A stretch of 64,000 bases of DNA from a virus. The stretch covers positions 96,001 through 160,000 of the IMG/VR virus record IMGVR_UViG_3300020472_001862. One strand, written 5' to 3'. Of this stretch, positions 42,002 to 53,177 are shown in pieces (position 1 is the first letter of the stretch; each line of letters starts with the position of its first letter). The notes beneath the pieces were generated by a model. The model worked only from the letters and a program-made list of their open reading frames with translations, was not told the DNA's origin and made no database searches. A program made the position numbers and the translations under genes.

Positions 42002-43177
42002 ATGCGCTTTACTGAATTTTTAAAAGAAGATAAAGAAGAAGATAAACTGAAGCATTTAGAGCATGTGGAGGATCATGTAATCCATGCTGGACACGAAGGC
42101 TTTGGACATGCTTTCCATACAATTAATGATGTTCATAATAGTTTACAAGGCAAAGGTTCAGGACAAACACAGACAACAATTAAATATGATGGAAGTCCTG
42201 CTGTAGTATTTGGGAAACACCCAGAGAACGGAAAGTTCTTTGTAGCATCTAAATCAGCATTCAACAAAACACCAAAAATTAACCATTCACACGAAGACAT
42301 AGATGCTAATCACGGACATGCTCCTGGACTTGTATCTAAATTAAAAGCAGCTCTAGATCACGCACATAAAATTAAACCTAATGGTGTATATCAAGCAGAC
42401 ATAATGCACGCTGGAGATGTTAAACACGACAAGAAGAATAATAGAGTAGATTTTACACCACAGTTAATTACATATCACGCACCAGCAGACTCAGAACATG
42501 GCAAAGCAGCTAAGAGAGCCAAGCTTGGGTTAGCAATACATACGGAGTATGAGGGTAAGACAATAGCCGATATGAAAGCCAAACACGGTGCTATTGACGC
42601 AAATACCTTCACAAAGCACAAGGATGTGCACCTTATGAGTGCTAATCATGATACAAGTACACATAGGTATAGCCTGGAAGATCGTAAGCAAGTAGATCAT
42701 CATCTAGAACAAGCAGTAGCACACTTTAAAAACACACCCAAAGAACATCACGATACAGTTCAAAAACATGCTACGGCAATGAAAGTATATGTCAACCATA
42801 CAGTACGAACAGGCGAACAACATTCTCACGAAGGGTTCGTAGCACATCACAGCGCCTCACATCAAAAGAAGATAGATAAAGTTAAAACAGATGTTGCTAA
42901 AGCAAGACATCAAACTACTATGGATAACACCATAGGTCATATAAATAAGAATAAGGAACACTTTGAAGGCCCAATGAACATGCACAAGCATTTACAAGCG
43001 GCAAAGAATATAATTACAAACACAATGTCTCAAAAATCAGAATGGGGGCATGAGATAGACGGAGCTAAGACTAAACCAGAAGGTTTTGTTGCCATACGAA
43101 ATGGTAGGCCTTCTAAATTTGTAGACAGGAAAGAGTTTAGTGCGCTAAACTTTAACAAAAACGATGCGAGGAGATAA
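42002..43177 (+). CDS. His-rich ligase-superfamily nucleotidyltransferase-like protein (DUF6267-like) with capsid-targeting-like N-terminus
   Basis: MRFTEFLKE; KYDG (motif I), QADIM, EGFVA and SKFVDR in ligase motif order; about 43 His in 391 aa by hand count. Confidence 0.65.
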   Translation: MRFTEFLKEDKEEDKLKHLEHVEDHVIHAGHEGFGHAFHTINDVHNSLQGKGSGQTQTTIKYDGSPAVVFGKHPENGKFFVASKSAFNKTPKINHSHEDIDANHGHAPGLVSKLKAALDHAHKIKPNGVYQADIMHAGDVKHDKKNNRVDFTPQLITYHAPADSEHGKAAKRAKLGLAIHTEYEGKTIADMKAKHGAIDANTFTKHKDVHLMSANHDTSTHRYSLEDRKQVDHHLEQAVAHFKNTPKEHHDTVQKHATAMKVYVNHTVRTGEQHSHEGFVAHHSASHQKKIDKVKTDVAKARHQTTMDNTIGHINKNKEHFEGPMNMHKHLQAAKNIITNTMSQKSEWGHEIDGAKTKPEGFVAIRNGRPSKFVDRKEFSALNFNKNDARR

Positions 43178-43231: not shown

Positions 43232-44089
43232 ATGGCAGAAGATAAGCACATAGTATTTTCATACGGAAGAATGAATCCACCTACTGCTGGACATAGCAAG
43301 GTTGTGGATAAGGTTCATTCTCACGCACAAAAAATAGGTGCTAATCACGCAGTTATTGTTAGTCATTCACAAAACAATAAAACAGATCCTTTACATCATG
43401 AACATAAGAAAGAATATTTAAAACATATTCATCCTGAAGTTAACTTTGAACATTCTACAAAAGAACACCCTCACTTCCTGGCACAACTTAAAAAGTTCCA
43501 CCAAGAAGGACATACACACGCAACAATGGTTGTAGGAAGTGATAGAGTAAAACAATTTAAAGCGTTGGCTAATAAGTACAACGGCAAAGAGTATAATTAT
43601 AAAAAGATACATATCTTATCAGCAGGACAGAGAGATCCTGATGCTGAGGGAGTAGCAGGTATAAGTGGAACAAAGATGAGAGCACATGCAAGTGGCAATG
43701 ACTACAAATCTTTCAAGGCAGGATTACATGCCAATCATAGTGATGAACATGCCAAAAAACTATATAAAGCAACACGACAAGGTATGAACTTACAGAAAGA
43801 GGAGAGAGGCATGTTAGACTTTCAAACATTTTTAAAAGAAGACATGGAAGGAATGTCTCAGAAGTCTGGAGACAAAAGAAGTACAGAGAGTGGTGCTGGT
43901 ATGACGGCTAAAGGTGTAGCCAAATATAATAGACGAACAGGTGGTAATCTAAAAACAGCAGTAACTACACCACCAAGTAAACTTAAAAAAGGCAGTAAAG
44001 CAGCAGGAAGGCGTAAGTCTTTTTGTGCTAGGTCCAAAGGTTGGACAGGCGAGAGAGGTAAAGCTGCTAGGCGGAGGTGGAATTGTTAA
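43232..44089 (+). CDS. His-rich HIGH-family nucleotidyltransferase fused to a basic C-terminal module
   Basis: YGRMNPPTAGH, MVVGSDR, SAG.RDPD, SGTKMR; about 22 His in the first 190 aa; C-terminal RRKSFCAR module. Confidence 0.8.
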   Translation: MAEDKHIVFSYGRMNPPTAGHSKVVDKVHSHAQKIGANHAVIVSHSQNNKTDPLHHEHKKEYLKHIHPEVNFEHSTKEHPHFLAQLKKFHQEGHTHATMVVGSDRVKQFKALANKYNGKEYNYKKIHILSAGQRDPDAEGVAGISGTKMRAHASGNDYKSFKAGLHANHSDEHAKKLYKATRQGMNLQKEERGMLDFQTFLKEDMEGMSQKSGDKRSTESGAGMTAKGVAKYNRRTGGNLKTAVTTPPSKLKKGSKAAGRRKSFCARSKGWTGERGKAARRRWNC

Positions 44090-44352
44090 TTTTAACTAGA
44101 TTGGCTATAGCATGTGTAACAGCAGTATTTGGAAACGCATTTAGTAAATGGTTTCTTAATACAAAAGTTGGTGGTTGGTTCCAAAGAAAAGTAAATAGTT
44201 TAATGGAGTTTTTGGCAAATAGATATAATATAGAACTTGCCAAGAAAGAAGCTAAATGGAGAGCAGATTATCCAATGTTAGCCAAAAGAATAGACAACAT
44301 AGAGTCTAAACTAGAAGGCTATGAAGACTGGAAGAAGGTTTTAGATGAGTAA
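44077..44352 (+). CDS. membrane-anchored hypothetical protein
   Basis: N-terminal hydrophobic helix; upstream of the spanin-like pair. Confidence 0.6.
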   Translation: MELLILTRLAIACVTAVFGNAFSKWFLNTKVGGWFQRKVNSLMEFLANRYNIELAKKEAKWRADYPMLAKRIDNIESKLEGYEDWKKVLDE

Positions 44353-44713
44353 AATATTAATGGGTATTATTGTAGCAATGGTTCTTGCCTTTGGTACATA
44401 TTACTGGCTGACTGAAAAGAGACTTGCAGTTCTAACTGAGAACAATGCTAAGTTATCTATAGCAGCAACAACAAATCAACAAACAATAGATAAATTAACA
44501 TCAGATTTCCAACAACAACAGGTTCTTAATGAAGAACTAAATATAAAGCTAAAGGCCTCTGAGGCATATGGCGACAATTTAGCTAAAAAATTAAGAGAAC
44601 ATGATTTAACAATGCTAACCCTAAAGAAACCTGGGTTAATTGAACGGAGAGTGAATAGTGCGACACAGAAGATTCTTACAGATCTCGAGTCTAGTACTGC
44701 TACTGTTAATTAG
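44345..44713 (+). CDS. i-spanin (Rz)-like protein
   Basis: N-terminal TM plus coiled coil, KPGLIERRVN.AT; overlaps a lipoprotein gene. Confidence 0.6.
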   Translation: MSKILMGIIVAMVLAFGTYYWLTEKRLAVLTENNAKLSIAATTNQQTIDKLTSDFQQQQVLNEELNIKLKASEAYGDNLAKKLREHDLTMLTLKKPGLIERRVNSATQKILTDLESSTATVN

Positions 44714-45056
44714 TAGCGGTTGTAGTCTTATACCTAAAGAGGTACAGGTACAAACTAAATTCGTAGAAAAACAAATACCAATACAAGGACACCCTAAAGG
44801 TTTAACTATGTATCCTATACAGTTTTATGCTGTAACGGAGGAAAACTTTGAGGAGTTTAAAGAGAAATTTGAGAAAGAAAATGCAGATTTAGTTTATTTT
44901 GCATTAAGTGTTCCTGATTATGAGAACTTATCCTTAAACATGGGCGAACTAAAACGCTATATAGAACAACAAAAGACTATCATTATATACTACGAACAAT
45001 CTATTACAGGTGTTAAGGCTGAAATAGTTTTGGATGACGACAAAGCCAAAGACTAA
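44658..45056 (+). CDS. o-spanin (Rz1)-like lipoprotein
   Basis: Lipobox LLISSGC; YENLSLN..ELKRYI.QQK.II.YYE. Confidence 0.62.
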   Translation: MRHRRFLQISSLVLLLLISSGCSLIPKEVQVQTKFVEKQIPIQGHPKGLTMYPIQFYAVTEENFEEFKEKFEKENADLVYFALSVPDYENLSLNMGELKRYIEQQKTIIIYYEQSITGVKAEIVLDDDKAKD

Positions 45057-45061
45057 TCTTG

Positions 45062-45069
45062 TATAAATA
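45062..45069 (+). promoter_or_regulatory. T4-type late promoter
   Basis: TATAAATA five nt before ATG 45075. Confidence 0.78.
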
Positions 45070-45074
45070 AGAGT

Positions 45075-46505
45075 ATGAAGAACTTTATGACATTCAGAGA
45101 AGATTTAGCTTCTGGCAGACCTGCCAAAAAACCTGTTTCTAGTAATTTACTACAACAAAGAGCTAAAGCAAATACTAAAGCTCTAAAGTCAGGTTTCATG
45201 AGGTTAACGAAACAGGAAAGAGATAAAGAAGCTCGAAGAATGTCAGAAGAGAAAAAGAACTGTGGGTGTGGACAAGATCCTTGTATCACATATGGCAAAA
45301 AACAAATGAAAGAAGCTATAGATACAAAACCAGTACACGATGCCAATAAAGCATTAGAGAAAAACATGGGTCTTAAAAAGACTAAGGACTCAGGTATCGT
45401 TAAAACTAAAGGTGGGTATGCAAGGAAAAGAACTTACACCAGAGAGTCTGCCAGGGATAATTACAATCCAGAAATTTCAGATAAAAGAACTAAAGAAAAA
45501 CTTAAAAAGGCTGGACTACCGCCTGAGTCTCCTAAAGTAATGGAAGCAAGAGAAAGAATTAGAGATATATTTGAAGGTAAGAAAAAAGGACTAGACGGCA
45601 AAGCATGTTGGAAAGGATACAAACTACAAGGTACCAAAAAGAAAGGTAATAAAACTGTAGATAATTGTGTACCAATGAGTGAGGAAGAACAAATGAAACC
45701 TCATAAAATGTACAAGGGCGATAAAGTAGTCGTGGCAAAGAATAAAGCAGAACATGATAAACTTAACAAGCAAGGATATACACACGACGATCCTAAAACT
45801 AAAAAGATTGAAGAAGTATCAGATCATCTTAAGACAAGATATATCCATAAGTCTATGAGGGATATAGACACTAAGGAAAGAGCTTCACAATTAGCAGACA
45901 AACAAGGCGCACCTGCTAGTGTAGGTAAATCATTAAGTAAGTCTACAGGCAAAAGACGTAAAGGTATTGCAAGAGCAAGAGCCAATTTAGAAAGACCTAT
46001 TAGAGAAGGTAAAAAACCAGTAGTACACAGCACAAAGCCAGACAGTCTTAAAATGGTTAAGATTAAATACAACAAACCTATTAAAACAAAAGTAACAGAC
46101 ATAGGTCCTGGTGGAAAAGAAGTAGTTAGAAAAGATTGGTCTGAAGGAATAGAAAGAGATCCTAAGTCTAATTCATTTAATAGAACAAAAAGAAAAGAAA
46201 CAACTGTAAGAGTTGGACAAAAGAGAGATAAGAAAACAGGTAAGATGGTAGATGTGATGGGTAAATCATCAGCACCACAAGGCTTACCTTCAATGAAAGA
46301 ACATCAAATTCAATTGGTAACAAACTTAGATTTTAATGAAAGTCTAGGTATGTTAGTATCAAGAGGCTTAAATAAAGTCCGTGGTGCTATTAAAGATGCA
46401 GAAAAGAGAACAGGATATAAAGTAGATCCTAGTAAAAACAAACATTCAAATCCAGTATCAGGCAAGAACATTGCTAAAAGACTGGCATCGCAAAAAAAAA
46501 GGTAG
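45075..46505 (+). CDS. Lys-rich modular capsid-internal polyprotein, part A
   Basis: N-terminus MKNFMTFRE; repeated hydrophobic-X-E junctions; ends just after an A9 run. Confidence 0.65.
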   Translation: MKNFMTFREDLASGRPAKKPVSSNLLQQRAKANTKALKSGFMRLTKQERDKEARRMSEEKKNCGCGQDPCITYGKKQMKEAIDTKPVHDANKALEKNMGLKKTKDSGIVKTKGGYARKRTYTRESARDNYNPEISDKRTKEKLKKAGLPPESPKVMEARERIRDIFEGKKKGLDGKACWKGYKLQGTKKKGNKTVDNCVPMSEEEQMKPHKMYKGDKVVVAKNKAEHDKLNKQGYTHDDPKTKKIEEVSDHLKTRYIHKSMRDIDTKERASQLADKQGAPASVGKSLSKSTGKRRKGIARARANLERPIREGKKPVVHSTKPDSLKMVKIKYNKPIKTKVTDIGPGGKEVVRKDWSEGIERDPKSNSFNRTKRKETTVRVGQKRDKKTGKMVDVMGKSSAPQGLPSMKEHQIQLVTNLDFNESLGMLVSRGLNKVRGAIKDAEKRTGYKVDPSKNKHSNPVSGKNIAKRLASQKKR

Positions 46506-47818
46506 AAATACCTAAGTCCGCTAAGAAAGACTTAGACAAACAATCCAAAGCAAGAGATAAAGATTGGTGGAAACACCAAGACAAATCTATGTCTGAGGCA
46601 AGCACAAATAAATTTAGTCTACAAGGACAAGAAGATGGCCCTTTAAGTTCTATGCCAAAAGGAACTAAGCCAATAGGTAGTAGAACTAAAAAGAACAAAG
46701 TATATGAAGATGCTCGATATGATCCTACTCCAGGTGGTATGGAATGGGGCACACCTCAAGGCACAGATTATTTCAAATCATTAACACCAGGTGAAGGCAA
46801 AGAAAGAGAAAAGCCTTTAAAGCCATTAAACATTAAAGCAAGAAAACCTGAAGACGAGAAGGGTGTTAAGGTTACAGAAGGACTACGCCAACAATTTGAA
46901 CCTGAATACTCAGAAGCTAAAAGACGATTAGGCAATAAAATTAGAGGCAAATTAGGACTTAAAAAGAAACCTACATTAGATTGGAAAAAGGATGCAGGTA
47001 TTAAAGAAGATTTAGACCTATCCCACATAGAAGATAAACAGGCAGATCATAGTAAGCATCAGTACCCTATTAACAATGAAGTAGAAACACATGATAAAGG
47101 TGATAAAGGACATTGGTTAACAGGTAAAGATGGTGATTGGTATATAGAACAAGATGACATTAAAGAGTTAGATAAAGAGGCAGAAAACTATACATTTGAT
47201 AAAGCTGTAGATGATGGATTGTATGACGATGATGAATTGGAATGGGAAGATTTCGACAATACTCCTGGATTTGATAATGAGATAAATGTAACCGAGGCAT
47301 TATCAGTACAGGGTCGTTTAAAAAGACGATTTAATGCACGAAGAAACAAACAAAAATTAAAAGTAGCTAGGCGTATAGCATTACGAAGAGGCTCCACACC
47401 AGATAGATTGAAGAAGAGAGCAACCAGGGGTGCAAGGCTCATGGTTTATAAACGACTACTCAGGGGCAGAGACAGAGCTGGACTACCACCAGCAGAGAAG
47501 GCTCGTTTAGAGAGAATGATTACTAGATTCCAACCACTAGTAAGTCGTATATCTGTTAAACTATTACCTCAGATGAGAAGAAATGAAATTAAACGACTAA
47601 CAGGGAGGGCTAAGTTAAGAGCTAAAACTAGTAAGAAGTTTAAAGCAGCAAAACCAGTGAAGAGTGCATCACAAAAGAGAGCTAAGAAGTTTAAAATAAA
47701 GGTTAACAAATATAAGGCACCTAAGAAGAAAGCAGCTAAACCTAGATATGCTTCTGGTGGCCCTACACTTAAAAAAGCAAGTAAAGCATATAAAGCCTTC
47801 TCATATTCCATAGGCTAA
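46478..47818 (+). CDS. polyprotein part B (-1 frame, open from 46478; first ATG 46589), Arg/Lys-rich C-terminus
   Basis: Frame is stop-free across the A9 run; no SD before 46589. Confidence 0.65.
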   Translation, partial: KTGIAKKKVEIPKSAKKDLDKQSKARDKDWWKHQDKSMSEASTNKFSLQGQEDGPLSSMPKGTKPIGSRTKKNKVYEDARYDPTPGGMEWGTPQGTDYFKSLTPGEGKEREKPLKPLNIKARKPEDEKGVKVTEGLRQQFEPEYSEAKRRLGNKIRGKLGLKKKPTLDWKKDAGIKEDLDLSHIEDKQADHSKHQYPINNEVETHDKGDKGHWLTGKDGDWYIEQDDIKELDKEAENYTFDKAVDDGLYDDDELEWEDFDNTPGFDNEINVTEALSVQGRLKRRFNARRNKQKLKVARRIALRRGSTPDRLKKRATRGARLMVYKRLLRGRDRAGLPPAEKARLERMITRFQPLVSRISVKLLPQMRRNEIKRLTGRAKLRAKTSKKFKAAKPVKSASQKRAKKFKIKVNKYKAPKKKAAKPRYASGGPTLKKASKAYKAFSYSIG

Positions 47819-47825
47819 GCCAACA

Positions 47826-47833
47826 TATAAATA
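47826..47833 (+). promoter_or_regulatory. T4-type late promoter
   Basis: TATAAATA five nt before ATG 47839. Confidence 0.78.
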
Positions 47834-47838
47834 CTAAT

Positions 47839-49407
47839 ATGAACCACGGTATTATAATGGGTGGTGTGGTTGACTATTATTATGATTCAATCAAACGAGC
47901 ACCCGGCGCACATAAAATTGCTACACATCTAAGACGAGAAGGATGGGACGTCGAGGTATTAGATTTTGTTCAATCCTGGACAATAGAAGAACTGCAAGAA
48001 TTCACAAGACAAAGAGTACATTCAGGGACAAAGTTCCTCGGCCTTAGCGCTACATTTTCTATTAGATTTAAAACATTATATGAATTCGCCAGATGGTTTA
48101 AGAAAGAATACCCAGACATTCTAATCATAGGAGGATCTCAGGCATTCCATAATTGTGAGGGACTGCCCTTAGACTATATGGTACATGGCTATGGTGAGTT
48201 GGCTATGAGTGCTATTCTTAGCGGAGATGTTAGGTATCAGACACATAAATGGCTTAATGGACACAAATTTAGGCGCGTAGACGCCACACATGACTATATG
48301 GCAGCGCGTATGAAAGACCTAAGTACACATTACGAGGAAAGGGACTATATAGAGCCACAGGAGGTCCTTACAGTAGAGTTTGGGCGTGGTTGTATATTTA
48401 ACTGCCACTTTTGTACCCTCACTTATAGGAACATTAAGGACGATCACAGCAGGGCTGAGGACAACTTATATCAGGAAATGCTAGAGAACTATAACAAATG
48501 GGGCACAACAAACTACTCTATATCTGATGAAACAGTTAATGATTACACAGAAAAGATAGAAAGATTTGCCGGTGCTATCAGAAAATTGCCTTTTAAACCT
48601 AATTGTGCAGGTTATATTCGTGGAGACTTATTAGTACATAAACAAAAAGATTGGCAAGCAATCGAGGATATAGGCTTAAATACACAATTCTATGGTATAG
48701 AATCTTTCCATACACCTTCAGCAAAATCTGTAGGTAAAGGTATGCAGTCAGGTAAACTACAAGATGGTTTATTAGAATATAAAGACCATATGAGGAGTAA
48801 AGGACACTTCCAGGCACATTTAAGTCTAATAGCAGGACTACCACATGAAACATTAGACACATTAAGAACAACTAAAAAATGGATAGTGGATAATTGGGTA
48901 GGACAATCAGCACAAATTATGCCTTTGTGGATTCCAGATCAAACTAGAATATATGAAGAACAAAGTAGATTTGCAATGGACCCAGGCAGATACGGCTATA
49001 CAAAAACAACAATGGAAGAGTCTAGTAATGGATTCTGGGAAGACGCACCTCATAAAAGATTTGGAAATTTGTATAGGGGTATAAAAAAGAGAGAAGAAGA
49101 GGAAACAGGTGTAGTATATAACACAGAAGAGAGTACATTCCAGGAAGAAATGTCTTTTATGAACTGGAAAAATGATAATACTAATCTATATCAAGTGTTA
49201 AATTACTTAGAACATGAGTGGTATGTTGGTGATGAACAGTTATGGAAAGAACCGCCTTTACCCTTCTCATATCATAATTGGCTAATAGACCCTAATTATA
49301 AATGGGAAGATATGTCTAAACCTAAGTCAGAATTAGCTGTTCCTCAGGAATTAGCTAGAAACTTTATAGAAAATTATAAAAGGAAAAAGTTAGGATTAAC
49401 TTCCTGA
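47839..49407 (+). CDS. B12-binding radical SAM enzyme, copy 2
   Basis: KRAPGAHKIATHLRREGWDVEVLDF, IIGGS, DYMVHGYGE, GRGCIFNCHFC, DET, GIES, IAGLPHET. Confidence 0.88.
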   Translation: MNHGIIMGGVVDYYYDSIKRAPGAHKIATHLRREGWDVEVLDFVQSWTIEELQEFTRQRVHSGTKFLGLSATFSIRFKTLYEFARWFKKEYPDILIIGGSQAFHNCEGLPLDYMVHGYGELAMSAILSGDVRYQTHKWLNGHKFRRVDATHDYMAARMKDLSTHYEERDYIEPQEVLTVEFGRGCIFNCHFCTLTYRNIKDDHSRAEDNLYQEMLENYNKWGTTNYSISDETVNDYTEKIERFAGAIRKLPFKPNCAGYIRGDLLVHKQKDWQAIEDIGLNTQFYGIESFHTPSAKSVGKGMQSGKLQDGLLEYKDHMRSKGHFQAHLSLIAGLPHETLDTLRTTKKWIVDNWVGQSAQIMPLWIPDQTRIYEEQSRFAMDPGRYGYTKTTMEESSNGFWEDAPHKRFGNLYRGIKKREEEETGVVYNTEESTFQEEMSFMNWKNDNTNLYQVLNYLEHEWYVGDEQLWKEPPLPFSYHNWLIDPNYKWEDMSKPKSELAVPQELARNFIENYKRKKLGLTS

Positions 49408-49411
49408 TTTG

Positions 49412-49419
49412 TATAAATA
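49412..49419 (+). promoter_or_regulatory. T4-type late promoter
   Basis: Intergenic TATAAATA. Confidence 0.75.
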
Positions 49420-49445
49420 CCGGTATAAACTTAAAGAAGTGTAAT

Positions 49446-51212
49446 ATGGCATACGATAAGAAAAGACTAGACACTCTAATTAGGCAAGGCATGATGCCCG
49501 CCAAATCATTACCTATTTTACATAGGGCTTTAGATAAACTAAAGAAGGGAGTTAACTTAACACCATATGAAAGAGAAGGGATTTCTAAGTTAATGGATAA
49601 AGTAATGGGTTTCCAATTTGGAGATGATATTACTTATAACAGAGCTAGATTACACACTCAAAGAACAAGATATCAAACCGAGGAGATAGGACCAGTGGAT
49701 AAAGGAAAAGAAGGCGATGTTATCGTCTATGATGGCTCTAAAGATGAAGCCGAATCAAAGAAGGATAAAAAAGTCAAGAAGAATGCACAGTCTAAACTTC
49801 TCAAAACTAATAAAGGAGATGGTATGAAACCTGAAGAAGAAATAAAAGAGGCTTCAGCTAGTAGACCCGCAGATAAAGATATTGGGGATAAAGAATCTCC
49901 TAAACAAGGGTCTTCTGTTAAGCCAGAAATTACGGATGGACCTAAACAAGATTCTAAACCTTCAATTAAAGAAGGCTTAATATCAGATTTAGATTCAGAA
50001 GGAATGAGAGCCAGAGCGAGTAGGCTAGGAAAGAAAAAAGGTAAAGTTTCTAAAGAGAAATTAGCCAAAGAACTTCCAGCAGCTCTTAGAAAAGAAAAAC
50101 AAAAAGCAGGATTGTCAGAAGACATGGTTAAGTTCAATGAACTTTACAAAGAAAATCTAGAAAGAGCATTAGCTAATAACAATGTAGATAATGTTAGAGA
50201 TATTCCTCTTAAAATTAAATCTGCTCTATTCAAACATGTTGAAGAAGCAACATACTCAGACAAACAAATTAAAATGGCTAAGGGTATTGCTTTTGATAAG
50301 CGACATAAAGGTGGCGACATGACAGGCGCTTATAAGAAAATGGAAAAGATCAAGAAAGGTTTAGGAGATACTCCTCAAGCAAGTAAGGCGCTTCAACGGG
50401 CTAATGAAGAATTAGAACAGCCGTTAGAAGAAGGTTCACTTAAAGACTTTGCAATGGGACATGGCTATTTTGATAACAGCAGTGAGGGTAAAGCAAAAAG
50501 GAAAGATCCTCAATGGTTATCTAAACAAGCAGGAAGTAAGAAAACTATTTCTTATGATAAAAAGAAACCTGCAGTTAAAGAATCTAAAATGGCAACTAAA
50601 GACCATGATGGAGACGGCAAAATAGAAACAGGCTCAGCAGAGTATCTAGGTTCTAAAGACAAAGCTATTAAGAAAGCTCTTAAGAAAGTACCTGCTCTCA
50701 AGAAAGAAGAAGTAGAAGAAACAGAAGTTAAGAAAACTCCTAACCAAGCAGTTAGAGATGTTCATAGAACTGTAGCTGATGTACTTGCCGGTAAAACAAT
50801 AGAAGTTTCAGATGAACCTTTAGTCATAGATCCTAATGTAGAATCTCAAGCAGAACTAGATAGAACAGTTAATAATGTTCAAGAAGGTGCTAGAGAAGAC
50901 GCTCTGAGGGATATTAGTAGAGATAAGGACTTAGCTAAGCCTAAGAAACCAGCACCTAAACCAGGTAAGTCAAAGCATGACGGTTCAGAGAATAAAGGCC
51001 CAGACCATATAGTAGCTCAATTAAGAAAAGCTGTTAGTTTAGGCGACAAACATGATGGTGTTAAATTCCAAGATGGAAAAACACATAAAGTCAGTGCAGC
51101 ACATGCTCATAAATTTTTAAATAAATATATGGCAGGTAAGCCAGCAGACAAAGAGAAAATGCAGTCTCATGGACATGCATCTCACGATAACTTTAAAAAA
51201 CACATAGATTAA
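49446..51212 (+). CDS. Lys-rich modular head-internal (poly)protein
   Basis: IKE|A, IKE|G, VEE|A, LEE|G, VKE|S, VQE|G junctions; DHDGDGKIE loop; His-rich tail. Confidence 0.62.
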   Translation: MAYDKKRLDTLIRQGMMPAKSLPILHRALDKLKKGVNLTPYEREGISKLMDKVMGFQFGDDITYNRARLHTQRTRYQTEEIGPVDKGKEGDVIVYDGSKDEAESKKDKKVKKNAQSKLLKTNKGDGMKPEEEIKEASASRPADKDIGDKESPKQGSSVKPEITDGPKQDSKPSIKEGLISDLDSEGMRARASRLGKKKGKVSKEKLAKELPAALRKEKQKAGLSEDMVKFNELYKENLERALANNNVDNVRDIPLKIKSALFKHVEEATYSDKQIKMAKGIAFDKRHKGGDMTGAYKKMEKIKKGLGDTPQASKALQRANEELEQPLEEGSLKDFAMGHGYFDNSSEGKAKRKDPQWLSKQAGSKKTISYDKKKPAVKESKMATKDHDGDGKIETGSAEYLGSKDKAIKKALKKVPALKKEEVEETEVKKTPNQAVRDVHRTVADVLAGKTIEVSDEPLVIDPNVESQAELDRTVNNVQEGAREDALRDISRDKDLAKPKKPAPKPGKSKHDGSENKGPDHIVAQLRKAVSLGDKHDGVKFQDGKTHKVSAAHAHKFLNKYMAGKPADKEKMQSHGHASHDNFKKHID

Positions 51213-51224
51213 TAGGAGAAAAAT

Positions 51225-51809
51225 ATGTCAAATTGGGGAGCAACTGACGCGGACGAAAGTAAGCCTAAGTATCTTACAGCCGCTCAGAAAAAAGAAGTAT
51301 ATGCTAACGCCAGTGGATGGGTTGTAGAAGCAGGTTCTACTATGACAGGAAATGGCCGTACAGGCGCTGATCCAGAAGTACTAGTAGCCATGTCTTCTCT
51401 ACAAACTAACCTAGGTGCAGCAGATATTACAGAAATTGAATGGATTACAACAGCAGCAGATAAGTCAGCAGGCTTTACACTTTCAGCTAGAGTAAGATTC
51501 AATGAAGAAGTAGATGTAACAGGAACACCACAATTATCAGTAACCAACGGTAACGAAGGTACTGGTTCAGGTCGTGGCCCACATGTACTTTCATACGCTA
51601 GTGGTACTGGTTCAAACGAACTTGTATTCTCACTAGTTATAGCAGCAGCAAACGCAGCTACTAATGCAGACGATGTATTAAGCATTGGTACCAACCCACT
51701 TGCTTTAAACTCAGGCACAATTAAAGATAAAGGAACTTCACAAGTTTCTACTATCACAAGTGCAGCAGGTATTGGTACAGCAGCTGGTACATTAACAGTC
51801 GTAGCATAA
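51225..51809 (+). CDS. virion structural protein (Ig-like/decoration type)
   Basis: AGGAG RBS; Ala/Thr/Gly-rich; FNEEVDVTGTPQL, YASGTGSNELVF. Confidence 0.65.
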   Translation: MSNWGATDADESKPKYLTAAQKKEVYANASGWVVEAGSTMTGNGRTGADPEVLVAMSSLQTNLGAADITEIEWITTAADKSAGFTLSARVRFNEEVDVTGTPQLSVTNGNEGTGSGRGPHVLSYASGTGSNELVFSLVIAAANAATNADDVLSIGTNPLALNSGTIKDKGTSQVSTITSAAGIGTAAGTLTVVA

Positions 51810-52269: not shown

Positions 52270-52656
52270 ATGATTGAACTTAATGATGATAACTTTTTGA
52301 TCTTTGCTATAAAAAATTACCAAAATCCTTCATGTACAGGGATGGCGGAATTAGAAGATGATTTAAAGAGATTTAAATATTTAAAACGCTTGTTAAATAG
52401 ATATGAAAAGACAGGCGAGCCAAATGAAAGGCTTATTATAAATCACTTAATACTTCTATATAATGTTTTTGGTAAGGGAACGACAGAGATGTTGTTCTAT
52501 AAATTAGAAGAAAAATATTGGTCTAATTTAAAAACTTACCTGGTGTTCTTAAATAGAATGCCATTAGAAGAAGTAAGTACACAAGGATTAAAATTAAATA
52601 AAGGTGTTCATACGCCACTAAATAATGAACTTATAACTATATTAAGGAAAATTTAA
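52270..52656 (+). CDS. conserved T4-like hypothetical protein
   Basis: NF..FAIKNY.NP.C..DLKRFKY.KRL..ERLIINH..LYNVFG. Confidence 0.8.
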   Translation: MIELNDDNFLIFAIKNYQNPSCTGMAELEDDLKRFKYLKRLLNRYEKTGEPNERLIINHLILLYNVFGKGTTEMLFYKLEEKYWSNLKTYLVFLNRMPLEEVSTQGLKLNKGVHTPLNNELITILRKI

Positions 52657-53177
52657 TGAGTAGAGCGTTAGATGCAGTCGTAGGAATTAGGTTACTTAAA
52701 TTACTAAGTACACCTATTCAAAAGTCTAAAGCATTCCAATTAGGAATTATAGACGCCGACGGCAAAAAACTCAAGAACCCTTCTACTACAGCAGAAAGAA
52801 ATGCTTATACATTACTTAATAGATTTGTATTTAAAGTTCAAAAATCCTTAACAAGATCTTCTGATATGAATGCTCGTAGGCTGTTATCATTTGCAGCTGC
52901 TATGGCATTATTAAGAGAATATGAAGAAACAGATGATGAATTAGATGTGGCAGTTCTTTTAGAGTTACACATGGAAGACGAAACGGTACAGCAGCAGGCT
53001 AGACTTTTGGAATCTAATGTGTTATCATTAAAAAACTATATGGAAGAAATGAACGGAGTAGCTGGAGGAGCAGTAGCTGGTATAGGTGTTGGTCCTCAAG
53101 GAGAACCAGGAAGAGATCCTGTGTTTATGCCAATGAACAGAAGAAAAAAGAAGAAGAAGAATGCCAACAGCAAGTAA
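52656..53177 (+). CDS. conserved T4-like hypothetical protein (pre-primase)
   Basis: LLSTP....AF.LGIID.DGK.L; C-terminal LKNYMEE plus a Gly-rich basic tail. Confidence 0.75.
   Translation: MSRALDAVVGIRLLKLLSTPIQKSKAFQLGIIDADGKKLKNPSTTAERNAYTLLNRFVFKVQKSLTRSSDMNARRLLSFAAAMALLREYEETDDELDVAVLLELHMEDETVQQQARLLESNVLSLKNYMEEMNGVAGGAVAGIGVGPQGEPGRDPVFMPMNRRKKKKKNANSK

Follow-up and report, generated by a model that had tools for sequence, protein, structure and literature searches.

In phage T4, IPI, IPII and IPIII, which are internal proteins, and the protein Alt are basic and late, have a cognate protease of the Peptidase_S77 family and begin with a leader of about 10 residues that ends in hydrophobic-x-Glu (PMC9026906, PMC8442874). 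The protease, gp21, cuts after L/I-x-E (PMC9026906), and the leader, or capsid-targeting sequence (CTS), is a plug-in device for diverse cargo (PMC9026906, PMC8442874). Here we describe a locus that appears to work like this CTS/gp21 system but adds a cassette architecture and a recoding step. It lies in a window of 64,000 nucleotides, bases 96001-160000 of the 170,236-bp IMG/VR genome IMGVR_UViG_3300020472_001862, which is about 99% complete and belongs to a T4-like myovirus. The locus centers on three open reading frames (ORFs), ORF45075, ORF46589 and ORF49446 (Table 1; positions are those of the window unless stated otherwise). It probably encodes late, capsid-targeted polyproteins that are cut by a gp21-type protease and arise from two expression units. 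As in T4, the leader, basic character, late expression and cognate protease are found together, and diverse cargo follows the leader. Whereas a T4 internal protein is single and cut once beside its leader, a chain of the kind described here is divided into exchangeable modules by about 10-20 internal sites, and the proposed recoding would add a second gene to it. No sequence homology links the two groups past the leader pattern.

The nearest published concept is that of the polyvalent proteins, which are likewise multi-module and for which packaging, delivery along with the DNA and processing into units are predicted (Iyer et al. 2017, PMC5512222). Polyvalent proteins have enzymatic effector domains and embedded peptidases, neither of which we found in the three ORFs; these consist of small non-enzymatic modules, and their cutting is proposed to occur in trans by the head-maturation protease. 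The inner-body and ejection proteins of phiKZ and SPN3US are also packaged in the head and cut after x-x-Glu, sometimes at several sites, by a T4-related prohead protease, but there the cuts trim long propeptides off large folded proteins and do not divide chains into many small peptides (PMC5694885). A literature search returned no description of such polyproteins in T4-like phages. In adenovirus, cuts by the viral protease in the pVII and pX/mu precursors yield basic DNA-condensing peptides that are kept with the genome. This likeness is one of function only; the virus, protease and proteins are unrelated, and there is no cassette shuffling.

A sequence-only reading of this stretch had described the three ORFs as Lys/Arg-rich strings of short modules bounded by prohead-protease-like sites. 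We located all 21 x-x-E sites that it had listed, as well as its Cys peptides, DxDxDG loop, His-rich tail and a C-terminal block with a net charge of +55. No other large protein of the 170-kb genome is as basic as ORF45075, ORF46589 and ORF49446, in which Lys plus Arg make up fractions of 0.26, 0.24 and 0.21. Junction sites number about 12 in ORF45075, about 8 in ORF46589 and 7-10 in ORF49446; many of them are conserved and match indel edges among relatives.

The junctions look like protease sites, with a hydrophobic P3, a free P2 and Glu at P1. We examined this in the CW-x-GY module of ORF45075, which is widespread in aquatic phage proteins (including p142 of cyanophage S-PM2) and occurs in more than 100 unrelated contexts. 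Glu stood at P1 in 77 of 102 internal copies, and most copies without it were one residue out of register. P3 was V, L, I, M, F or Y at 69 of these 77 junctions, P2 was taken by 16 different residues, and P1′ was small or acidic. Four proteins begin at Met plus the P1′ residue of this module, and 16 proteins end straight after NCV, without Glu. From these varied contexts, the Met-plus-P1′ starts and the C-terminal copies lacking Glu, we concluded that the motif belongs to the joint and not to the fold. In the ORF49446 family, which is more colinear, P1 is Glu in 97% of sequences or more at five sites, where P3 is hydrophobic in 88-100% and P2 varies (identity down to 36%); in ORF49446 itself the conserved sites follow E135, E176, E225, E267, E329, E379 and E480. 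The densest carriers of hydrophobic-x-Glu-Gly/Ala in the genome are a gp67/68-like protein, gp21 and gp22, all homologs of known T4 gp21 substrates, and gp23 has an L-F-E/A site (the slash marks the cut) at residues 50-53, the expected position of its propeptide.

Homologs of the chains differ from one another by whole modules. Among 1.8 billion representative proteins, 594 matches were found; the matched stretches have their edges near ORF45075 residues 59, 167, 203, 247, 311, 357 and 409, which correspond to predicted cuts. In related contigs (L numbers denote such contigs or loci, P numbers the related proteins used for comparison) the ORF45075 orthologs range from 382 to 865 aa, with whole modules inserted, deleted or reordered; in L006 the module order is permuted relative to the window. 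The ends of BLAST high-scoring segment pairs were tried as a measure of breakpoints and rejected, being dominated by the CW-x-GY module and too fuzzy. We used instead a clean-indel test on the distinct indels of at least 15 aa found among relatives of the three families (n = 62). Fifty of these could be placed as a block that starts directly after one Glu and ends with another within 3 residues (3.4 expected), 41 fitted within 1 residue (1.5 expected), and a hydrophobic P3 was present at both ends in 26 (0.7 expected). In comparisons with the window only, 12 of 19 indels were bounded by Glu. The sequence-only reading had asked whether homolog boundaries match the x-x-E sites and whether modules are shuffled between phages. 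Homology breakpoints and indel edges do fall at the sites, and modules are found reordered and swapped among relatives as well as across gene families. For sharing between the three families, BLAST support in the fetched sets was limited to P0354/P0355 and P0236; P0354, an ORF49446-family protein, contains a module related to ORF45075 aa 248-311.

Head targeting of the chains is supported by the leader, the late promoters, a cognate protease and the detection of related proteins in virions. The leader of ORF45075 has aromatic residues at positions 4 and 7 and ends in a hydrophobic-x-Glu site; its aromatic residues and terminal Glu resemble the CTS of T4 IPII and IPIII (IPIII as printed in PMC8442874). 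Leaders of the T4 type run to 10-19 residues, with an aromatic or hydrophobic residue at each of these two positions. The pattern M-[KR]-x-[FY]-x-x-hydrophobic followed by x-Glu occurred in 27 of 142 related proteins versus 2 of the 209 ORFs of this genome. Whatever sequence precedes it, the first module of ORF45075 always begins directly after hydrophobic-x-Glu. The T4-type late promoter box TATAAATA has 12 matches in the window, all on the + strand, and four of these stand directly 5′ of ORFs of this locus (41989, 45062, 47826 and 49412). A gp21-type serine protease (Peptidase_S77, 138.6 bits) is encoded outside the window at genome positions 85829-86488 (L003:9829-10488), adjoining the gp20, gp22 and gp23 genes.

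Mass spectrometry of purified virions of cyanophage S-SM1 detected the cytidyltransferase T4-GC190 (25 counts), T4-GC1453, 1454 and 1455, and the S-layer-domain protein GC425 (Sullivan et al. 2010, PMC3037559). Among the virion proteins of the same study is T4-GC119, the length of which varies greatly. In the S-SM1 genome we identified these as SSM1_190 (GC190), SSM1_188 (GC1453), SSM1_191 (GC1454), SSM1_192 (GC1455) and SSM1_195 (GC425), a block syntenic with the locus in the window. SSM1_190 combines a near-perfect CTS-like leader with a C-terminal module of the ORF46589 type. In SSM1_191 and SSM1_192, both modular and rich in Lys, the joints are hydrophobic-x-Glu, and the motif of the DxDxDG module of ORF49446 recurs in SSM1_191. 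These data show that proteins of this class are packaged.

We considered whether the chains might act as protease-cut accessory core or scaffold proteins, which would help in prohead assembly or sizing through electrostatic pairing with the acidic gp22 and whose fragments would be expelled, as is the debris of gp22, gp67 and gp68, instead of staying as cargo. Multiple internal cuts are typical of the T4 core proteins, whereas T4 internal proteins have one: gp22, gp67 and gp68 are cut by gp21 at many Glu sites. The gp22 of this phage is extremely acidic; in T4, gp22 and the internal proteins purify together, and mutants in IPIII have effects on head morphogenesis. However, T4 core proteins are acidic, conserved scaffolds that are largely expelled, whereas the chains here are basic, mosaic and fast-evolving, and such rapid turnover of cassettes is unlike that of structural scaffolds. 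Purified mature virions of S-SM1 contained the syntenic proteins, and highly basic fragments (up to +55) should bind the packaged DNA. We regard a scaffolding role as unlikely.

Another explanation is that the proteins remain uncut in the infected cell as intrinsically disordered, modular DNA- or RNA-binding proteins, their Glu joints being recombination scars or linker preferences. The frequency of the loose motif is accounted for by composition, as set out below, and AF2 models of the chains are mostly disordered and of low confidence (mean predicted local distance difference test, pLDDT, of 57 and 53), with ordered exceptions in a helical basic domain of ORF46589 (aa 233-341) and small terminal domains of ORF49446. 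Pfam has no family for any of the three ORFs at E 0.1 or better, PHROG matches were to families of unknown function only, and a BFVD fold search brought up no informative fold, its matches all being uncharacterised relatives that include many cytidyltransferase fusions. This explanation does not account for the conserved P3 and P1 around a free P2, the stand-alone proteins that start at Met plus P1′ and the loss of Glu at C-termini. Nor does it account for the CTS-like leaders, for a motif common to gp21, gp22 and gp23, or for the virion detection in S-SM1, and we consider it quite improbable.

ORF45075 and ORF46589, which the sequence-only reading had treated as separate module strings, are probably joined as one recoded polyprotein, judging from the sequence between them; the strings themselves, like that of ORF49446, were confirmed. 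ORF45075 ends in C-A9-G-G followed by the stop codon. The A9 run is the sole homopolymer of at least 8 nt in the AT-rich genome, which strongly avoids homopolymers: we counted 8 A-runs and 5 T-runs of at least 7 nt and the one run of at least 8, against dozens by a crude composition estimate. Every other KKK in the three ORFs is interrupted by AAG. ORF46589 is in the -1 frame relative to ORF45075, which is open from position 46478, shortly ahead of the run. Between the run and the annotated ATG, 30 codons encode a peptide that is conserved in L008, L009, L011 and L020, and substitutions in this stretch are biased to the third codon position.

We found exactly A9 in 10 distinct loci with 55-100% protein identity. 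Nine of the 10 have the same codon phase, with an AGR codon next and a zero-frame stop 4-6 codons on. Eight of these nine loci are uncut and have an open -1 frame of 372-505 aa, and in L004, where the contig ends, it extends over 181 aa; the +1 frame closes within 4-7 codons in all nine. Start codons (ATG, GTG or TTG) are missing from the -1 ORF over 232 codons of conserved sequence in L010 and over 69 codons in L013. In the tenth locus, L022 (L022:3335-3520), the codon phase differs: the -1 frame adds one 60-aa module and then stops, and a separate ATG-initiated ORF follows. Slippage in this variant would add a single cassette.

These data bear on a simpler account, in which ORF45075 and ORF46589 are independent, the run merely encodes Lys-Lys-Lys, and translation of ORF46589 begins at the annotated ATG or at some unusual start codon. 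There is an ATG at 46589 in the window and one 6 codons past the run in L011, and L014 and L016 have separate ORFs without a run. Against this, no other run of at least 8 nt exists in the genome and the other KKK codons are broken by AAG; run length, phase and -1 geometry are identical in nine otherwise divergent loci; and conserved coding sequence precedes any start codon by up to 232 codons. Directly upstream of 46589 we found no late promoter box and no obvious ribosome-binding site. We consider independent genes a rather improbable explanation. Joined at the run, the predicted fusion has about 914 aa and an isoelectric point of 10.1, and it offers a route into the head for the leaderless modules of ORF46589.

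Comparable runs are used elsewhere. Bacterial RNA polymerase slips efficiently on 9 A or T, and dnaX of Thermus thermophilus relies on transcriptional slippage at such a 9-nt homopolymer (printed as 9 Ts); A_AAA_AAA can also support ribosomal -1 shifts (PMC5009743). In E. coli dnaX a -1 ribosomal frameshift occurs at A_AAA_AAG, and phage tail-chaperone genes provide the G/GT frameshifts. As in dnaX-type recoding, a homopolymeric run lies near the end of the zero-frame ORF and would give two products in a set ratio. Unlike in dnaX-type recoding, the shifted product would be the longer one and would join two module strings, and we found no stimulatory structure shared by all loci.

In the mechanism that we propose, the 9-residue T4-CTS-like leader of ORF45075 would direct the chain of the first unit into the prohead core. 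Most translation would stop 4 codons past the A9 run and give a 476-aa chain. A fraction would shift to the -1 frame, by addition of an A by RNA polymerase or by slippage of the ribosome, and continue through ORF46589 as a chain of about 914 aa, so that the leaderless ORF46589 modules would be carried in by the ORF45075 leader. ORF49446 would form the second unit. In the prohead, the gp21-type protease would cut after Glu at the hydrophobic-x-Glu junctions and free about 25-30 fragments of 10-170 aa, most of them strongly basic; the few acidic fragments may exit with the scaffold debris. We infer that the chains are targeted and cleaved in this way, that the frame does shift, and that products are retained with the DNA; a role in neutralising DNA charge or in injection is speculation.

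Several observations weigh against this mechanism. For the proteins of this phage itself the evidence is made up of sequence and models, and the S-SM1 data concern presence in virions and not cleavage. ORF49446, taken alone, shows no CTS-like leader in the window; its relatives carry short leaders ending in hydrophobic-x-Glu. The more distant loci L014 and L016 are without the A9 run, and each downstream ORF there has an ATG of its own. Hairpins downstream of the run, candidate frameshift stimulators, were inconsistent between loci: z was about -3.3 to -3.6 in the window and L021 and -2.6 in L009, with no hairpin in L010 and weak ones in L011 and L013. In E. coli, moreover, A_AAA_AAA is less shift-prone than A_AAA_AAG (PMC5009743). 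As a separate observation, the window has a 7-bp hairpin at 46512-46535, 11 nt 3′ of the run (z = -3.6 for the 80-nt stretch), which is conserved in L009 and absent in L010.

The cut-site motif also requires caution. Neither [LI]xE nor [FMVILW]xE is enriched over shuffles in the three ORFs, and both are rarer there than in the rest of the genome; we therefore dropped counts of the loose motif as evidence for cleavage. The form [FMVILW]xE[GA] was seen 13 times versus 3.1 expected, a number reached by 0 of 5000 shuffles, and at about 0.009 per aa it is denser than in the genome as a whole (0.003), but the restriction to Gly/Ala at P1′ was chosen after the list had been seen, and we take this enrichment as supportive only. 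The sequence-only reading had itself named a site frequency explained by composition as a ground for abandoning the idea; this applies to the loose motif and not to the Gly/Ala form. P3 at these junctions is often V, M, F or W instead of the L/I of T4. Many of the listed sites are conserved, and about a third, including F-N-E/L, V-E-E/T and M-K-E/A, are poorly conserved and may not be real sites. In sum, the cassette-polyprotein idea is backed in its module boundaries and its head targeting, loses the loose motif, may lose some of its sites, and had missed the link through the A9 run.

The modules themselves are diverse. The basic C-terminal block of ORF46589, about 170 aa, had been called protamine-like. 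A basic block is present, but it combines a conserved helical domain with a C-terminal tail rich in Lys and is not a low-complexity Arg/Lys tract without a conserved fold: residues 233-341 form a four-helix region with many invariant positions (pLDDT 73-84 in AF2), and low complexity is confined to aa 342-409. In the homologs compared, hydrophobic-x-Glu/Ala always lies directly N-terminal to this domain. Homologs occur in the T4-like phages HTVC008M (Pelagibacter), phiM12 (Sinorhizobium) and DLP6 (Stenotrophomonas), that of HTVC008M being a stand-alone protein with a CTS-like leader, and homologs are often fused to cytidyltransferase-like proteins. In some ORF46589 orthologs (P0187, P0199, P0197, P0202, P0207 and L005:9422-10729) a hydrophobic module, Gly-rich and resembling a glycine zipper (YcfJ in one source), is inserted precisely behind an I-S-E or I-T-E junction. 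This is a possible membrane-active cassette.

Between the two polyprotein units, at 47826-49407, is a gene for a class B (B12-binding) radical S-adenosylmethionine (SAM) protein that has a TATAAATA box to itself. The same position between ORF46589 and ORF49446 is occupied by a radical SAM gene in L006, L016, L020, L021 and L022 as in the window. An unrelated gene of 286-312 aa replaces or joins it in L005, L014, L020 and L021. The placement of this late-promoter-driven gene, together with the paired Cys of several modules, raises the question of whether the chains are precursors like those of ribosomally synthesised and post-translationally modified peptides (RiPPs), with modules tailored by the radical SAM enzyme before or after cutting. 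L005 and L014, however, have a different gene at that position, and we found no leader-recognition element or RiPP family match. Such tailoring is very improbable; it is compatible with head-targeted polyproteins and so is no true alternative to them.

A bolder extension of the head-targeted polyprotein proposal, which we hold to be doubtful, is that leader, junctions and A9 switch together let two genes load a tunable cocktail of at least 25 small peptides into each capsid, for injection along with the DNA. We can suggest only tentatively that this cocktail would comprise DNA-binding, Cys-paired and Ca-loop modules and, in relatives, glycine-zipper membrane-type modules. It is likewise a long shot that some of the peptides may be tailored by the radical SAM protein and that cassettes are swapped as a toolkit in an arms race.

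Table 1. Features of the polyprotein locus, in window positions
Feature	Position	Strand	Description
ORF45075	45075..46505	+	Zero-frame product, 476 aa; about 12 modules bounded by hydrophobic-x-Glu
ORF46589	46589..47818	+	409 aa as annotated; without late promoter or leader of its own
ORF49446	49446..51212	+	588 aa; helical N-terminal domain (aa 4-78), modules, His-rich C-terminal domain
Late promoter box of T4 type, TATAAATA	45062..45069	+	5 nt 5′ of the ORF45075 ATG
CTS-like leader	45075..45101	+	aa 1-9 of ORF45075, M-K-x-F-x-x-F-x-E, then predicted cut
First module of ORF45075	45102..45248	+	aa 10-58; conserved in all orthologs
Cys-containing module of ORF45075	45249..45314	+	aa 59-80; other Cys-rich modules in its place in relatives
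CW-x-GY...NCV module of ORF45075	45576..45683	+	aa 168-203; basic, two Cys
Module of ORF45075	45816..46007	+	aa 248-311; cleanly missing in L004/P0002
A9 slippery run	46492..46500	+	x-AA AAA AAA AGR, stop 4 codons later; proposed -1 recoding site
Startless -1-frame coding stretch	46499..46588	+	Joins A9 to the annotated ATG of ORF46589
Basic C-terminal block of ORF46589	47297..47815	+	aa 237-409, net +55; helical domain and Lys-rich tail
Late promoter box of T4 type, TATAAATA	49412..49419	+	Upstream of ORF49446
DxDxDG module of ORF49446	50583..50720	+	aa 380-425; indel unit in relatives

Almost all genes are on the + strand. The head module, with portal, the gp67/68-like protein, the gp21 protease, the gp22 scaffold (T4_CASP) and gp23, lies upstream of the window. 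The polyprotein locus is flanked by a spanin-type lysis cassette and by a homolog of the cyanophage "S-layer domain" virion protein, with the gp61 primase gene a few kb beyond, and its arrangement is syntenic with that of S-PM2, S-SM1, HTVC008M and phiM12. The entire stretch between 42002 and about 53200 resembles an island of late, virion-associated genes set within the replication region. The lysis cassette (44077-45056), directly 5′ of ORF45075, consists of overlapping ORFs for a small membrane protein, a membrane-anchored protein and an Rz-like lipoprotein spanin (phrog_812), and is kept in all related loci. On the other side, 51225-51809 encodes the homolog of cyanophage virion protein T4-GC425 (S-layer domain protein; confirmed by tblastn), and 52656-53177 a possible counterpart of virion protein GC426.

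Two neighboring proteins show similar traits. A DUF6267 protein begins with a leader (42002-42028) that is nearer to the T4 capsid-targeting sequence than that of ORF45075, and more hydrophobic-x-Glu sites follow. A cytidyltransferase-like protein (43232-44089), whose cyanophage homolog is virion-borne, has a C-terminal DUF6321 module (about 43830-44086) directly after an L-K-E junction. This module is present in the window, L004, L021 and L022 and absent in L005, L006 and L010, where the protein stops a few residues past the junction. From this presence and absence, the cassette grammar seems to apply to the cytidyltransferase-like protein too.

T4-like myoviruses are among the most abundant marine viruses, and the families described here have hundreds of metagenomic relatives, all annotated as hypothetical. 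The A9 link is a concrete proposed recoding site and, read in this way, genes of the ORF46589 type are routinely given wrong starts. The grammar of leader plus junctions could serve to package designed peptides in phage heads. If our reading of the locus is true, it would extend the T4 system of one leader and one protein to a polyprotein strategy otherwise associated with RNA viruses, and would reveal a large, fast-evolving set of capsid-delivered peptides.

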